Notes: generated by a model not told the origin, from the sequence alone. A DNA stretch of 64,000 nt from Bacteroidia bacterium (GCA_020054095.1 JAGVMA010000063.1:1397-65396), one strand, 5' to 3'. Shown: positions 47,429-54,544, counted from the stretch's first letter. Program-made: numbers and translations.

Positions 47429-47466
47429 TGCCATTTTGTCACGCTCACATATTTTAGCTACTTTTG
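47429..47466 (+). promoter_or_regulatory. miaB operon promoter (-33 TTTG, -7 TACTTTTG) overlapped by TGCCA-TTT-TGTCA
   Basis: TTTG at 47435-47438, 20-nt spacer, TACTTTTG at 47459-47466; dyad at 47429-47441. Confidence 0.55.
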
Positions 47467-47510
47467 TTTCCCTGAAAAAAATTTTGGAATTTAATCAACA
47501 AAAACAAAGA

Positions 47511-48935
47511 ATGAGGCAATCGGGCGAACAAATGGAAGAAAGCAGACAAGGTGAAGCGATGGTTTTAGAAAACCCTAACGGAACCAAAAAAATGTTTTTA
47601 GAAAGTTACGGTTGCGCCATGAATTTTTCTGATAGCGAAATTGTTGCTTCGGTATTAGCCGGCAAAGGATATACATCTACCAATAACTATAAAGAAGCCG
47701 ATGTGGTTTTAATAAACACCTGCGCCATTCGCGATGCAGCCGAGCTGCGTGTGCGCAACCGGTTAAAAGAATTTAATGCCGTAAAAAAATACAATCCCAA
47801 GTTAATTGTGGGTGTTATGGGCTGCATGGCCGAGCGATTGAAATCGAAATTTCTGGAAGAAGAAAAAATAGTTGACATAGTGGTTGGCCCTGATGCTTAC
47901 CGCGATTTGCCTCATTTAATAGAATCGGTAGAAGGCGGACAAAAAGCGGTGAACGTACTTTTATCGTTGCAAGAAACGTATGCCGATATAAGCCCCGTTA
48001 GATTAGATTCTAACGGAGTTACTGCATTTATAAGCATTACTCGGGGCTGCGATAATATGTGTTCGTTTTGTGTGGTGCCATTTACACGTGGCCGCGAACG
48101 AAGCCGTGAGCCGGAAAGTATTATTAACGAAGCTCGTCAGTTATTTGAACAAGGTTACCGCGAAGTAACATTGCTGGGGCAAAACGTAGATTCTTATTTA
48201 TGGGCCGATGGAAAAGCAAAAAAAGAATTAACCGATGAAGAAGCAAAACGCGGATTTAGTTTTGCCGATTTGCTGGATGCGGTAGCAAAAATATCGCCCG
48301 AATTGCGGATACGATTTTCTACCAGCAACCCTCAAGATATGACAGATGATGTGCTGCACGCCATTGCCCGCCACGAAAACATATGCAACTATATTCACCT
48401 GCCGGTGCAAAGCGGCAGCAGCACAATGCTTAACCGCATGAATCGTGGTTACACGCGCGAAAAATATTTTGAGCGCATTGCAGCCATCCGGCAAATTATT
48501 CCCGATTGCGGATTATCAACCGATATTATTACCGGTTTTTGTGCCGAAACAGATGAGGAGCATGCCGAAACTATTTCGCTGATGGAAGCCGTGAAATTTG
48601 ATTTTGCATACATGTTTGCTTACAGTGAGCGCCCGGGCACTGCTGCTGCAAAAAAATATACTGATGATGTGCCCGAAGAAATAAAAAAAGCACGCCTGCA
48701 ACAAGTAATTGCGCTGCAACAAAAACACTCGGCCGAACGAACTAAACAAGGTGTGGGTAAAATTCACAAAGTATTGGTGGAGGGTGTTTCAAAAAAATCG
48801 AGCGAAATGTTTTATGGCCGCAACTCGCAAAACACTACTGTGGTTTTCCCGAAAGGAAACCATAAAAAAGGCGAATATGTGAATGTGCTTGCCGAGGAAT
48901 GTACGCTGGCAACTTTAATTGGAAAGGTGATTTAA
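47511..48935 (+). CDS. miaB: tRNA-2-methylthio-N6-dimethylallyladenosine synthase
   Basis: SYGCAMN, NTCAIRD, CDNMCSFC radical SAM motif, C-terminal TRAM; ATG 47511 (or 47532) rather than 47421. Confidence 0.96.
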   Translation: MRQSGEQMEESRQGEAMVLENPNGTKKMFLESYGCAMNFSDSEIVASVLAGKGYTSTNNYKEADVVLINTCAIRDAAELRVRNRLKEFNAVKKYNPKLIVGVMGCMAERLKSKFLEEEKIVDIVVGPDAYRDLPHLIESVEGGQKAVNVLLSLQETYADISPVRLDSNGVTAFISITRGCDNMCSFCVVPFTRGRERSREPESIINEARQLFEQGYREVTLLGQNVDSYLWADGKAKKELTDEEAKRGFSFADLLDAVAKISPELRIRFSTSNPQDMTDDVLHAIARHENICNYIHLPVQSGSSTMLNRMNRGYTREKYFERIAAIRQIIPDCGLSTDIITGFCAETDEEHAETISLMEAVKFDFAYMFAYSERPGTAAAKKYTDDVPEEIKKARLQQVIALQQKHSAERTKQGVGKIHKVLVEGVSKKSSEMFYGRNSQNTTVVFPKGNHKKGEYVNVLAEECTLATLIGKVI

Positions 48936-48995
48936 AAATGAGTAATACAGAAATAAATAAAACAATAATTAAGTGATTTTTTAAAATGAAAAATA

Positions 48996-49061
48996 ACTCT
49001 AATACCTTGAATCTAAAATCTAACATCTTACCTCTTGATTCTAAAATCTTGGTTCTAAAAT
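48996..49061 (+). repeat. Heptamer-periodic low-complexity intergenic repeat
   Basis: cttgaatctaaaat, cttgattctaaaat, cttggttctaaaat. Confidence 0.55.
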
Positions 49062-50280
49062 GAAAATACAAGACATAAAAAATCGTTTCGGAATTATAGG
49101 CACATCGCCTTTGCTTGATAGAGCAATGGATATTGCTATACAAGTAGCGCCTACCGATTTAAGCGTTTTAATAACAGGCGAAAGCGGAACGGGTAAGGAA
49201 GTATTTCCGCAAATTATACACCAATTAAGCAGCCGCAAGCATGGCGCTTACATTGCCGTTAACTGCGGTGCAATACCCGAAGGCACAATTGATTCGGAAT
49301 TATTTGGCCACGAAAAAGGCTCGTTTACGGGCGCTAACGAAATGCGAAAAGGATATTTTGAAGTGGCCGATGGCGGCACCATTTTTTTAGATGAAGTAGC
49401 CGAAATGCCATTGGCAACACAAGCCCGCTTGCTGCGTGTACTCGAAACGGGCGAGTTTATTAAAGTGGGATCATCTAAAGTGCAAAAAACTAATGTACGC
49501 GTGGTGGCTGCCACCAATGTTAATTTACCACAAGCGATAGAAAAAGGAAAATTCAGAGAAGATTTATACTACCGCCTCAATACAGTGCCCGTTACCGTGC
49601 CACCTTTGCGCGAACGCAAGCAAGATATTCATTTATTGTTCCGGAAATTTGCCGCTGATTTTTCGGCAAAATACCGCATGCCGAGCATTAAGCTGGATAC
49701 CGATGCCGAAAAACTACTCACCAATTATTATTACCAAGGCAACGTGCGCCAATTGAAAAATATTACCGAACAAATTTCTATCATCGAAAAAACGCGCGAC
49801 ATAAATGCCGATACTTTAATACGCTACCTCCCGCAGCATAACATTACACAACAACCCATGCTGGCTAAAGCCGATGGCGTGCAAACCGAATTTACTGAAC
49901 GCGACATTTTATACAAAATACTTTTTGATCTCAAGAAAGACATGAACGATTTAAAAAAAATTGTGGTAGATTTAATTGAAAACGACTCGGTATTAAAACA
50001 AGATTTTATGCCCGAAAACGAACACATCATCAAAAAACTTTACCAAGATGTGGGCCTTACCGAAACCACTACCCTTAAACTTGGCTACAACGAAAATAAA
50101 GATTACGATAACGGAACCATTGTGATAGAAGAACCACGATCGCTCCAGCAAGTAGAAGAAGAAATGATAAAAAAAGCATTAGAAAAATACAAAGGCAAAC
50201 GCAAACATGCCGCCAATGAATTAGGAATATCTGAACGAACGCTTTACCGAAAAATTAACGAATATGGAATAAAGGAATAG
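49060..50280 (+). CDS. Sigma54-interacting AAA+ transcriptional regulator (Fis HTH) without N-terminal sensor domain
   Basis: GESGTGKE starts near residue 40; ELFGHEKGSFTGA, FLDEV, FREDLYYRL, LGISERTLYRK. Confidence 0.93.
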   Translation: MKIQDIKNRFGIIGTSPLLDRAMDIAIQVAPTDLSVLITGESGTGKEVFPQIIHQLSSRKHGAYIAVNCGAIPEGTIDSELFGHEKGSFTGANEMRKGYFEVADGGTIFLDEVAEMPLATQARLLRVLETGEFIKVGSSKVQKTNVRVVAATNVNLPQAIEKGKFREDLYYRLNTVPVTVPPLRERKQDIHLLFRKFAADFSAKYRMPSIKLDTDAEKLLTNYYYQGNVRQLKNITEQISIIEKTRDINADTLIRYLPQHNITQQPMLAKADGVQTEFTERDILYKILFDLKKDMNDLKKIVVDLIENDSVLKQDFMPENEHIIKKLYQDVGLTETTTLKLGYNENKDYDNGTIVIEEPRSLQQVEEEMIKKALEKYKGKRKHAANELGISERTLYRKINEYGIKE

Positions 50281-50311
50281 AAAAAATTTAAAATTGTAAG
50301 TTTACAACTTT

Positions 50312-50405
50312 AAATCACTTTTAAAATAAAAAAATGGCTTTCGGAGTAAAAAAACCGGCTTTTTGCTTATAAAAAATCACTTTTGATAAGAAAAAAATGA
50401 CTTTT
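50312..50405 (+). repeat. Degenerate ~21-bp tandem repeat (5 units, A-tract..CTTT)
   Basis: CTTT cores at 50318, 50338, 50359, 50380 and 50401, each preceded by an A-tract. Confidence 0.5.
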
Positions 50406-50479
50406 AAAGCACCAAAAGTTAAAAATGAAAAAACTAAGATTAACAAATCAACAAATTACCTCACCAGCAAATTAACTAA

Positions 50480-50986
50480 TTGGCACATCAACAAATTAAA
50501 ATAATAATCACCCTTTTGCTCGTTACATTATACTCGTGCAAAATGCGCTACTCGTTTACCGGAGGCGAAAAAGGCAACGCCAAAACCGTGCAAGTACAAT
50601 TTTTTAAAGTAGATGCACCACTCGCAAAACCCACCACAGGCATCGTTTTCACGGAAGCATTAAAAGATATAATGCAAAACCAAGGCAAACTTGAACTGAT
50701 AACCACCAATGCCGATTTAAACTTTGAAGGACAAATAACCGCTTATGCCATTACGCCCGTTGCCATCCAAAGCAACGACCAATCGGCCCTCAACCGATTA
50801 ACCATCACCGTACAAGTGAAATACACCAATACATTAGAAAAAGAAAAAAGTTTCGATCAATCCTTTTCGCGATTTGTAGATTACGAAAGTTCAAAAAATC
50901 TATCATCAGTAGAAGATGAATTGATAACCGAAATAGTGCGCCAATTGGTACAAGATATTTTTAACCGATCGCTAAGCAACTGGTAA
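50480..50986 (+). CDS. lptE: LptE family lipoprotein
   Basis: Lipobox LYSC, YSFTG, NRLTITVQVKYTN, QDIFN..NW; start uncertain (TTG). Confidence 0.8.
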   Translation: MAHQQIKIIITLLLVTLYSCKMRYSFTGGEKGNAKTVQVQFFKVDAPLAKPTTGIVFTEALKDIMQNQGKLELITTNADLNFEGQITAYAITPVAIQSNDQSALNRLTITVQVKYTNTLEKEKSFDQSFSRFVDYESSKNLSSVEDELITEIVRQLVQDIFNRSLSNW

Positions 50987-50991
50987 ATTAC

Positions 50992-52062
50992 ATGAACAAG
51001 CAACAATTCATATCGTATTTAGAAAATCCACATTTGCTCGATGAAAAATCGCTGCAAGAAATAGCACCACTTGCCAGCCAGTTTCCTTATTGCCAAAACC
51101 TGCACCTGCTGCTTGCTAAAAACCTTCACAATTTAAGCAGCATCCATTTCGATAAACAAATAAAAATTGCAGCAGTTTATGCCACCGATAGAAAAAAACT
51201 TTATCAGTTAATAAACAATAAGTACAAAGTAGAAAGTATTAAGCACGAAGAGAAAAGTACTGAGAGCCAAGAAACAAGAGTTGAGATTAAAGAGGAAAAA
51301 ATAATTCAAATTGAAGAACCTCTAACCACCACCAATTTACAATCTACAATTGAAAATTTACAAATTGAAGAACCTCTAATCACCAACAATTTACAATCTA
51401 CAATTGAAAATTTACAAATTGAAGAACCTCTAACCACCAACAATTTACAATCTACAATTGAAAATTTACAAATTGAAGAACCTCTAACCACCAACCAGCA
51501 ACCAGTAACAAGTAACCAACTATCAACCGAATTTGAAGAAATAGAAAAATTAGAAAAAGAAAAAATCACACTCGATGAACAATACCAAATACAAGCCGTA
51601 GAAGCCGAAATAGAAATAGGCATAGAACACGCCACCGAACAATTAGAATCACAAGTATATAACTTTGAAGAAGCTGAAACCAGCAACCAGCAACCAATAA
51701 CCCAAAACACCGAATTAAGTTTTACCGATTGGCTAAAAATAAGCACCCAACAAAACATAACCCAATTACCAACAGAAGAAACAACAGCCGAAGAAAAATC
51801 AGAAGATTTAATAGAAAAATTCATAAATACACCACCCGAAAAAATAAAACCCAAAAAAGATTTTTACAACCCCATTAACATGGCACGCCAGAGCGCGCTC
51901 GATAACAGCGAGTACGTAACCGAAACATTAGCAACCATTTACGAAAAGCAAGGCGCTTACTCAAAAGCCATCCGCGCTTACGAAATATTGATTTTGAATT
52001 ATCCCGAAAAAAGTGTTTACTTTGCCGCCCGAATTGAGGAAATAAAGAAATTGATTAATTAA
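50992..52062 (+). CDS. Hypothetical protein with C-terminal TPR-like helices and an acidic repetitive linker
   Basis: FPYCQ near the N-terminus; TETLATIYEKQG..KAIRAYEILILNYPEKSVYFAARI at the C-terminus. Confidence 0.8.
   Translation: MNKQQFISYLENPHLLDEKSLQEIAPLASQFPYCQNLHLLLAKNLHNLSSIHFDKQIKIAAVYATDRKKLYQLINNKYKVESIKHEEKSTESQETRVEIKEEKIIQIEEPLTTTNLQSTIENLQIEEPLITNNLQSTIENLQIEEPLTTNNLQSTIENLQIEEPLTTNQQPVTSNQLSTEFEEIEKLEKEKITLDEQYQIQAVEAEIEIGIEHATEQLESQVYNFEEAETSNQQPITQNTELSFTDWLKISTQQNITQLPTEETTAEEKSEDLIEKFINTPPEKIKPKKDFYNPINMARQSALDNSEYVTETLATIYEKQGAYSKAIRAYEILILNYPEKSVYFAARIEEIKKLIN
51307..51495 (+). repeat. In-frame 54-bp tandem repeat, 3.5 copies (QIEEPLTTNNLQSTIENL)
   Basis: Units start at 51307, 51361, 51415 and 51469, nearly identical. 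Confidence 0.95.
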
Positions 52063-52075
52063 AATAACACACTAC

Positions 52076-52423
52076 ATGGCATTTATTCAAGTACTTATTA
52101 TCATTATCTCGATACTACTTGTATTAGTAGTATTGGTACAAAATTCAAAAGGCGGTGGCATCGCATCAAACTTTGCAGGCAACACACAAATAGTAGGCGT
52201 AAAACGCCAAGCCGAATTAATAGAAAAAATAACTTGGGGTTTTATCATCGCACTTTTTGTGCTATGTATAGCCACCGCATCGTTTAAAGGCGAAGTAGTA
52301 AACACTAAAACCGATTCGGTAGTTAAAAACACCGAAGCACCTATGCAACCTAATCCGGGCGGAAACGGAACAGGCGTTCCGCAAATGCCTCAGCAAGGCG
52401 GTAGCGATACAATTAAACCTTAG
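52076..52423 (+). CDS. secG: Preprotein translocase subunit SecG
   Basis: VLVQNSKGGG, IEKITW, two TM helices. Confidence 0.93.
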   Translation: MAFIQVLIIIISILLVLVVLVQNSKGGGIASNFAGNTQIVGVKRQAELIEKITWGFIIALFVLCIATASFKGEVVNTKTDSVVKNTEAPMQPNPGGNGTGVPQMPQQGGSDTIKP

Positions 52424-52431
52424 TTTGTGTT

Positions 52432-52526
52432 TGTCAGTTTGGCACTGAAAAAATTTCCATCCCAAACACTTCGCTGAAAAATTGTCGCACTATTTAAGTT
52501 CACAACCCATTGGCACAAAATATGAC
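52432..52526 (+). promoter_or_regulatory. Putative sigma54-type groES promoter with upstream TGnCA-N3-TGnCA sites
   Basis: TGTCA-GTT-TGGCA at 52432-52444; degenerate TGAAA-AAT-TGTCG at 52475-52487; TTGGCAC-N5-ATGA at 52510-52525. Confidence 0.5.
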
Positions 52527-52580
52527 AAAGCCAAGCGTAAAAAAAATTTAATCATTAACAATTTAATCTCTAAATAAACT

Positions 52581-52871
52581 ATGGCCAAACTAAACATTAA
52601 ACCAGTAGCCGGCACTCAAAACAGAGTGGTGGTAGAACCGGCAGCAGCCGAAGAAAAAACAGCAGGCGGAATTATTATCCCCGATACGGCAAAAGAAAAA
52701 CCACAACGCGGAAAAATTGTAGCTGTGAGCGAAACCGATGAAAAAGGAAACAAGCCCGCAGTAAAAGTAGGCGATACAGTATTGTACGGTAAATATGCAG
52801 GTACTGAAATTACTGTTGATGGCAAAGAATTACTCATCATGCGCGAATCAGATATTTTCGCAATCATTTAA
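52581..52871 (+). CDS. groES: Co-chaperonin GroES
   Basis: [35 protein letters not shown]. Confidence 0.97.

Positions 52872-52897: not shown

Positions 52898-54544
<1,647 letters not shown>

Follow-up and report, generated by a model that had tools for sequence, protein, structure and literature searches.

The stretch of DNA analysed here (the window, 64,000 nucleotides from a Bacteroidia bacterium, GCA_020054095.1 JAGVMA010000063.1:1397-65396) carries on its plus strand, in this order, miaB, a gene for a 406-residue sigma-54 activator, lptE, a gene for a conserved 356-residue protein, secG, groES and groEL, with topA as the divergent neighbour to the left of the cluster. Our subject is a candidate chaperone control circuit within this cluster, in which the activator, a bacterial enhancer-binding protein (bEBP) that has no receiver domain, would act through a 13-bp palindrome on a sigma-54-type promoter of groES and on the promoter of its own operon. 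The tRNA methylthiotransferase gene miaB (47532..48935, plus strand) was recognised by TIGR01574 (454 bits against a cut-off of 355) and by the Pfam domains UPF0004, Radical_SAM and TRAM; the activator gene occupies 49060..50280, and groES (PF00166, NF001531) and groEL (PF00118, TIGR02348) occupy 52581-52871 and 52910-54544, all on the plus strand. The genome assembly to which the window belongs comprises 3.17 Mb in 87 contigs (100% complete, 37% G+C). The order miaB-activator-lptE-x-secG-groES is kept in most of 80 related loci retrieved via the activator (60-82% identity), 54 of which have groES downstream in a like gene order and constitute our close set; miaB and groES share one contig, at most ~6 kb apart, in roughly half of the families searched. 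A diverse set was sampled from 40 relatives, four of the same family and 36 of other families of the class. For the counts in upstream regions, 200 nt were taken at each of 30 loci for every gene, from the own genome and from relatives that mostly belong to different families, with 200 dinucleotide shuffles as control; because of the kinship among the relatives these counts are not to be taken as probabilities.

As the earlier note on this DNA had described, the activator begins directly with its AAA+ domain: PF00158 spans residues 12-178 (E = 1.8e-68) and is followed by the lid (184-265), a conserved helix at ~280-308, a variable and probably disordered linker and a C-terminal helix-turn-helix (HTH) domain (HTH_8, 362-402), while neither a receiver nor any other sensor domain appeared in the domain search. 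The Walker motifs GESGTGKE and FLDEV are seen in the translation and are invariant in the orthologs, and the loop that contacts sigma-54 reads GSFTGA, a presumably functional variant of GAFTGA, with G87, F89, T90 and A92 invariant and G91 nearly so among 24 orthologs. Across 24-25 orthologs with an overall identity of 52-83%, the recognition helix LGISERTLYRKI does not vary. AlphaFold2 models HTH_8 as three helices (predicted local distance difference test, pLDDT, 82-91); the whole-protein model, built from 24 sequences, is poor (mean pLDDT 63.5, predicted template modelling score 0.28) and served for secondary structure only. The top PDB matches cover residues 11-250 and comprise NtrC1 of Aquifex, FleQ and the AAA+ domain of PspF (E = 1e-59 to 1e-70); no solved structure among the matches spans the linker helix and the HTH. 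The protein itself falls outside the PspF family (TIGR02974, 275.6 bits against a cut-off of 443.55). Ortholog-level matches (E <= 1e-100) occur in 40 of the 41 genomes of the class, with 34 end-to-end alignments; every adequately complete genome has the activator, which directly follows miaB in 24 of the 30 diverse loci.

The partner sigma factor, on whose presence the proposal depends, is encoded by a single rpoN in the own genome (PF04552, 173.8 bits, C52:59132-59608) and was found in 39 of the 41 genomes, both misses being incomplete assemblies (66% and 69%). True sigma-54 activators number only two in the own genome: the receiver-less protein and a 386-residue protein on contig C55 (C55:33432-34148; L002:1087-2247) that consists of a receiver (REC), AAA+ and lid domains and has no HTH, a domain composition checked in the own copy only. 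In 12 genomes (G003, G004, G007, G008, G013, G018, G022, G025, G026, G027, G028 and G033), grpE has a look-alike of this second activator (~390-410 residues) on its own contig and strand at a distance of 4.3-7.9 kb, and the Flavobacterium psychrophilum look-alike near grpE is THC0290_1548. The REC-type activator may share or divide the chaperone regulon with its receiver-less counterpart.

The spacer between secG and groES (52424-52580) contains neither TAnnTTTG, the consensus of Bacteroidetes sigma-A promoters, nor a half-site of the controlling inverted repeat of chaperone expression (CIRCE), nor a terminator-like hairpin, so that the earlier note's reading of this spacer as free of the first two holds up in the scan. 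What it does contain is the conserved sigma-54-type -24/-12 element TGGCAC-AAAAT-ATGA (52511..52525, plus strand; TTGGCAC at 52510-52516, ATGA at 52522-52525), which is homologous to the mapped groS promoter of F. psychrophilum and whose GG and TG stand in canonical sigma-54 register. It is the top position weight matrix match in the own genome (28.4 bits). The runner-up to this groES matrix, TGTTGGCATGATATCTGACAGAT at C41:19988 (23.3 bits), was set aside as a chance match inside a coding region; it sits in the 3' part of a 314-residue reading frame, 115 nt before the next gene. A strict scan for TGGCA-N7-TGC gave 10 intergenic matches in the own genome. Among close relatives, TGGNA-N7-TG is found 46-80 nt 5' of the groES ATG in 51 of 55 loci (window counted), where TGG(C/T)A(C/T) and (C/A)TGAC are fixed and the five spacer bases vary freely. 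In the diverse loci the pattern TGG[CTA]A-N7-TG[AC] precedes groES in 19/30, grpE in 22/30, hsp20 in 20/30 and miaB in 0/30 cases (shuffle means 0.6-0.9, maximum 4); the same promoter type thus also precedes grpE-dnaJ and hsp20 across the class.

The earlier note had remarked on a -12 dinucleotide of GA instead of GC. The GA is indeed there and departs from the textbook GC, but it is no defect: over ~30 families the -12 triplet is TGA in 16/23 groES, 19/26 grpE and 16/22 hsp20 sites, and TGC in merely 3, 3 and 4 of them, respectively. The same triplet dominates the sigma-54 promoters of F. psychrophilum, whose 5' ends were mapped by Guerin 2021 and grouped there under the sigma-54 motif SM4 at groES-groEL, lon, dnaK, grpE-dnaJ, htpG, skp and clpB (PMC9723704): in the strings looked up in supplement file 3, namely groS TTGGCATAATTTCTGAAAAG (sigma-54 motif probability 1), skp TTGGCACGATAGTTGAATTT, clpB TTGGAATAACAATTGACGAT, lon ATGGCACAATCCTTGACTTA, dnaK TTGGCACAAAACTTGACTAT, htpG TTGGTATTTATTTTGACTGT and grpE TTGGCAGCAATTTTGCAATG, the -12 reads TGA in six of seven, groS included. 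Because GA holds the majority both in the class and at these mapped 5' ends (6/7), it does not mark a weakness of the groES element; TGA is the usual -12 of the class, and the textbook GC does not define the promoters of this lineage. In the F. psychrophilum strings the 5' end is placed 13 nt 3' of the base that follows TG (PMC9723704, supplement file 3), and by register with them, the grpE string in particular, the groES transcript of the window is predicted to start at 52537..52539 on the plus strand. A different account, in which TGGCAC-N5-ATGA is a chance match or the site of another factor and groES owes its transcripts to read-through from secG or to a sigma-A promoter that escaped recognition, could point to the missing GC at -12; we regard it as very improbable, given the fixed distance from the ATG at which the element is kept in those 51 of 55 close relatives, the TGA-type element at the mapped groS 5' end with its sigma-54 motif probability of 1 (PMC9723704), the lack of TAnnTTTG in the secG-groES spacer, and the persistence of the element in a reduced genome of 21.7% G+C (G019, see below). 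By these comparisons the groES element is best classed as a sigma-54 promoter of the type normal in the class.

Variants of the sigma-54 promoter that are specific to individual genes are kept across families. A T before the TG is present in 1/23 groES sites yet nearly always at grpE and hsp20 (~30 families); position 6 is taken by a pyrimidine in the groES promoters and by a purine in those of grpE, and hsp20 promoters often read TGG(A/T)A. In F. psychrophilum grpE has a leaderless sigma-54 transcript, since its mapped 5' end is the A of the start codon (PMC9723704).

Two dyads upstream of the groES element, as pointed out in the earlier note, were recovered in full: the distal palindrome TGTCAGTTTGGCA (52432..52444) starts 79 nt and the proximal palindrome TGAAAAATTGTCG (52475..52487, left half degenerate) 36 nt before TGG. 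TGNCA is self-reverse-complementary except for its middle base, and TGNCA-N3-TGNCA is therefore a 13-bp palindrome and not merely a direct repeat. The exact form occurs twice in the 64-kb window, as TGTCAGTTTGGCA at groES and as TGCCATTTTGTCA at miaB. Upstream of groES, CTG[AC]AAAATTGTC is kept in most of the 54 close and 30 diverse regions. A relaxed dyad, TG.[CA]A-N3-TG.C, was counted in 27/30 groES, 23/30 grpE, 12/30 hsp20 and 23/30 miaB regions of the diverse loci, where the shuffle controls gave means of 0.8-1.0 and a maximum of 5; the exact palindrome was present in 15/30 groES and 21/30 miaB regions (shuffle means ~0.1 each). It is this conservation, and not the frequency of the exact palindrome, on which the observation chiefly rests.

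The distance between dyad and promoter is not arbitrary. At grpE the dyad starts 25-26 nt before TGG in 16 of 18 dyad-promoter pairs, and at groES the distances are 25, 36, 45-46, 66-68 and 78-79 nt, that is, steps of ~10.5 bp. The two spacings of the window, 36 and 79, fall within these helical classes; class 36 has five occurrences at groES, and class 78-79 recurs in other families. The F. psychrophilum strings end 22 nt 5' of the motif (PMC9723704, supplement file 3), and the right-hand parts of dyads are visible ~25 nt before the clpB, grpE, htpG and groS promoters at that edge (PMC9723704).

The distal palindrome TGTCAGTTTGGCA is the counterpart of the conserved element AATGTCAGAGTGTCAC...CTCTGACATTTTTT of the relatives, which in most of them has the form of a hairpin with a run of T behind it, AATGTCAGAG...CTCTGACATTTTTT. 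From this form one could take the inverted repeat after secG for a plain secG terminator, so that only the proximal dyad, if either, would be regulatory. We consider this possible but doubtful, for the sequence of the distal arm is conserved across families, which is not usual for terminator stems; moreover, the arms are TGTCA half-sites, often TGTCA-GAG-TGTCA, and the element stays in phase with the promoter, at 66-68 and 78-79 nt from it. In the window itself the hairpin has decayed, with no terminator-like site called, and the palindrome is intact. Both roles are mutually compatible, and the distal site may double as the secG terminator in the relatives.

At the other end of the cluster, the 13-bp palindrome TGCCATTTTGTCA (47429..47441) constitutes a putative autoregulatory operator. 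It is followed by the TAnnTTTG box TACTTTTG (47459..47466, plus strand), which by motif match is the -7 element of a Bacteroidetes sigma-A promoter. With TTTG inside it (47435-47438) and a gap of 17 nt to TACTTTTG, TGCCATTTTGTCA overlaps the -33 element of the promoter that drives miaB and the activator, just as the earlier note had stated for TGCCA-TTT-TGTCA. The form NGNCA-WWW-TGNCA precedes miaB in 41/41 close relatives, and a miaB palindrome is placed at a set distance before TAnnTTTG, 15-19 nt in 39/41 close relatives and 15-18 nt in 19/30 diverse loci. Palindrome and box are laid out alike before miaB of F. psychrophilum, whose sigma-A 5' end has been mapped (PMC9723704), and the motif class SM1/SigA of that organism has the same TAnnTTTG box (PMC9723704, supplement file 3). 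In addition, a conserved AAATGTCAG and, behind it, an AT palindrome such as TATATATATAAATATATATATA are found in the topA-miaB spacers of most close relatives (L012-L063), ~60-90 nt 5' of the miaB operator; the window is without this element.

As to the regulatory background against which these sites have to be read, HrcA (PF01628) had no match in the own 100% complete genome and was found in none of the 41 genomes of the class. In a sample of the phylum, HrcA was present in 0/15 genomes of the class (own included) versus 32/46 of other classes. RpoH (TIGR02392) reached no more than 167.8 and 161.7 bits in the own genome against a cut-off of 323.1, and these matches are other sigma-70-family proteins. 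The earlier note's proposal of a control distinct from HrcA and sigma-32 is consistent with these results. The own genome contains two sigma-70-family genes of ~290 codons (C31:39810-40592 and C66:40035-40811), one of which just follows a gene preceded by AATGGCAAATGTTTTGCG (C66:38244). In five genomes of other classes, admittedly few, the two arrangements separate: the three with HrcA (L275, L276 and L277 of G044, G053 and G094) have one or two perfect CIRCE copies, TTAGCACTC-N9-GAGTGCTAA, before groES, and the two without HrcA have a sigma-54-type element there, which reads TTGGCACGCCCTTTGA in one genome and, in the other, TGGTACGGTAGTTGC with TGCAAAATTGACA at 47 nt upstream of it. Since genomes with CIRCE and HrcA coexist with genomes of the sigma-54 type, both control systems exist within one phylum. 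The best full-length activator matches outside the class come from the HrcA-negative families f42 and f50.

Which protein reads the palindrome can be approached through the reduced genome G019 (0.5 Mb in 9 contigs, 98% complete, 21.7% G+C). Its only PF00158-type match is the receiver-less activator, directly after miaB, and rpoN is kept. The groES gene retains the -24/-12 element TTGGCATAAAAAATGA, the dnaK upstream region retains palindrome and promoter element as TGCCATTTAGTCA ... TTGGCACAAGTATTGA, and grpE likewise keeps both, as TGCCAATATGACA, 12 nt and TTGGCAAGAATTTTGA. The pattern scan of this genome yielded 41 matches versus 8 in the reversed control; three were intergenic, at groES, at dnaK and within the atp operon, and the last was treated as chance. 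Since sigma-54 cannot open promoters without an activator and the receiver-less protein is the sole one, it must serve the sigma-54 promoters of G019. A Pfam search of 300 open reading frames (ORFs) of 72-345 residues identified Fur and sigma-70 as the only other DNA-sequence-specific regulators; ~30 of these ORFs had no family, 19 shorter ones had been dropped, and ~190 longer ones lay outside the scan. G019 also keeps a PF02591 zinc-ribbon protein (L296:14970-15722), PF02591 being the family of the RpoN-stabilising HP0958 of Helicobacter pylori, and an HPF/'sigma-54 modulation protein' (PF02482, L308:1432-1716).

The chaperone promoters share their palindrome with the promoter of the activator's own operon, and the constancy of the helix LGISERTLYRKI parallels the constancy of the DNA motif across the class. 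Position, the palindrome at the own promoter, matching conservation, G019 and the complementarity with HrcA together make the neighbouring activator the best candidate for the protein that binds the palindrome. Alternatively, the palindrome could be the operator of another protein, for instance a heat-shock repressor in the role of HrcA, while the REC-type activator opens the promoters from solution and the HTH activator has its targets elsewhere. A dyad beside a -24 element and over a -33 box does occupy positions typical of repressors, and a REC-type activator without a DNA-binding domain, with look-alikes near grpE in 12 genomes and in F. psychrophilum, would be at hand. We nevertheless judge this arrangement unlikely: G019 has no second activator yet keeps rpoN, promoters and palindromes, and Fur is the only other recognisable sequence-specific regulator among its 300 ORFs (with the ~30 lacking a family and the ~190 outside the scan to be kept in mind); moreover, helical phasing over 25 to 79 nt suits an activator better than an occluding repressor, and in most families the palindrome accompanies the very operon that encodes the HTH activator.

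With the activator as the reader of the palindrome, the following mechanism is proposed. The activator of the miaB operon would bind TGNCA-N3-TGNCA via its invariant Fis-type HTH, with a second palindrome site one or more helical turns further upstream; at the site it would assemble its AAA+ ring, which would open the sigma-54 closed complex. At the palindrome over its own -33 box the activator would limit its own synthesis. Having no sensor, it is probably restrained in trans, as PspF is by PspA; our guess is chaperone titration, perhaps on the conserved helix 280-308. Analogues for such control in trans by a partner protein or by chaperones are PspF-PspA, sigma-32-DnaK and HrcA-GroEL. The weak -12 (TGA, and at groES a non-T before TG) may permit basal expression of these essential genes.

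Several observations weigh against this picture. The exact palindrome is not over-represented genome-wide: 22 copies in the 3.17-Mb genome stand against ~37 expected from our estimate by base composition, and three of the 22 precede hsp20, miaB and groES. A composite scan of the own genome for dyad plus promoter returned groES and hsp20 only, besides three likely chance matches. A dyad with one mismatch, TGCCCCTTTGTCA, was seen by eye at the own grpE, 57 nt upstream; no dyad accompanies the canonical-looking CGGCAATGCATTTGC of clpB, and dnaK, which is located after a small ORF, shows nothing but TGGCAG-N6-TTGT, whose spacing is off, and dyad-like sequences at an odd distance. Even in G019, groES is without a clear dyad and miaB without an operator. 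Sites of enhancer-binding proteins are typically 80-150 bp upstream, and the present sites, centred near -45 or -56 by our arithmetic from the spacings, are unusually close for such a protein. The REC-type activator, having no HTH, could act from solution. Some HrcA-positive genomes of other classes hold a full-length activator look-alike of 43-44% identity, and within the class the ubiquity of the activator makes presence and absence uninformative on its link to the palindrome. Finally, the gene set is the ground for assuming that heat is the signal; in F. psychrophilum the sigma-54 cluster rose on blood agar, in osmotic stress and in plasma (PMC9723704). We infer the binding of the activator to the palindrome and the activation of the promoters, like the autorepression, from sequence comparison; with these steps left as such, the circuit proposed in the earlier note fits all comparative tests run.

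On balance, it is rather probable, judging from the comparative evidence, that the locus is the local copy of a class-wide chaperone module composed of sigma-54 promoters and a receiver-less activator that acts via the palindrome; the sensor-less activator is likely to be the heat-shock regulator of Bacteroidia. A more far-reaching version can be offered only tentatively: the activator would be the master proteotoxic-stress regulator of Bacteroidia and some sister lineages that has replaced HrcA-CIRCE, would be indispensable (because a genome cut down to 0.5 Mb retains it, next to rpoN, as its one activator), would use promoter-proximal phased palindromes without DNA looping, would sense stress by chaperone titration on its conserved linker helix and would rely on a deliberately weak TGA -12 for the basal chaperone level needed for growth.

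Among known systems, PspF of Escherichia coli resembles this protein in lacking an N-terminal sensor, in combining AAA+ with a C-terminal HTH and in serving a stress regulon; PspF autoregulates and is held inactive in trans by PspA. Unlike those of PspF, the targets of the present activator would be cytoplasmic chaperones and its sites promoter-proximal; a PspA-like partner did not come to light, although no search aimed at one was made. NtrC1 and FleQ have a receiver or FleQ N-domains, and the solved AAA+ relatives (NtrC1, FleQ and PspF) otherwise bind distal enhancers, unlike the binding proposed here. HrcA-CIRCE is similar in that the groESL and dnaK operons are controlled via a conserved inverted repeat; in contrast to the situation here, it is a repressor that works on sigma-A promoters.

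The earlier note had taken this for an undescribed system, which applies in part only. Sigma-54 control of groES, dnaK, grpE, clpB, htpG and lon in Bacteroidota is already published and not new: besides the F. psychrophilum work, an in-silico survey in PLoS One 2025 (PMC12316311) finds an enrichment of sigma-54 promoters in the chaperone cluster of Bacteroidota, with predicted promoters for GroEL, GroES, IbpA, GrpE, DnaJ, DnaK, HtpG, ClpB and Lon; the passages of that survey used here contain no activator, no enhancer and no remark on a TGA -12. The F. psychrophilum SM4 regulon is like the present one in gene set and in the TGA at -12 (PMC9723704). The parts of that paper drawn on here list three PF00158 proteins, assign none and describe no enhancer; compared with them, what the present analysis contributes is the palindrome with its phasing, the autoregulatory site and a link to the activator. 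The main text of Francke 2011 (PMC3162934) contains neither Bacteroid* nor groE nor miaB, and neither the activator nor the palindrome is named in any paper found by a full-text literature search, which did not extend to the docx appendix of Guerin 2021. The new part, activator and enhancer, thus appears to be unassigned in the literature.

The remaining genes of the cluster lie between the activator and groES on the plus strand: lptE (50480..50986, PF04390, E = 1.4e-18), the gene for the conserved 356-residue protein with an internal repeat (50992..52062), which keeps its syntenic place in most of the 80 loci and had zero family matches in Pfam and NCBIfam, and secG (52076..52423, PF03840, TIGR00810). 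By eye, about three tandem copies of a ~54-nt unit are present in the 356-residue protein gene at 51300-51500 of the window, and alignment of the protein with its relatives is confined to the N- and C-terminal parts. A second in-frame ATG of miaB is located at 47511.

Chaperone induction in Bacteroidota, a phylum that includes gut Bacteroides, fish-pathogenic Flavobacterium and insect endosymbionts, so far has no named regulator, for the papers that place sigma-54 promoters at the chaperone genes leave the obligatory activator unnamed. With one particular protein, a site of 13 bp and a rule for its phasing at hand, this question becomes directly testable. The retention of rpoN in very small flavobacterial symbiont genomes has been described as unusual and tied to nitrogen in a genome paper (PMC3971599, in the part used here); the present interpretation, if true, would explain it. 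Promoter-proximal enhancer sites and a class-wide TGA at -12 would then also widen the textbook picture of sigma-54 promoters.

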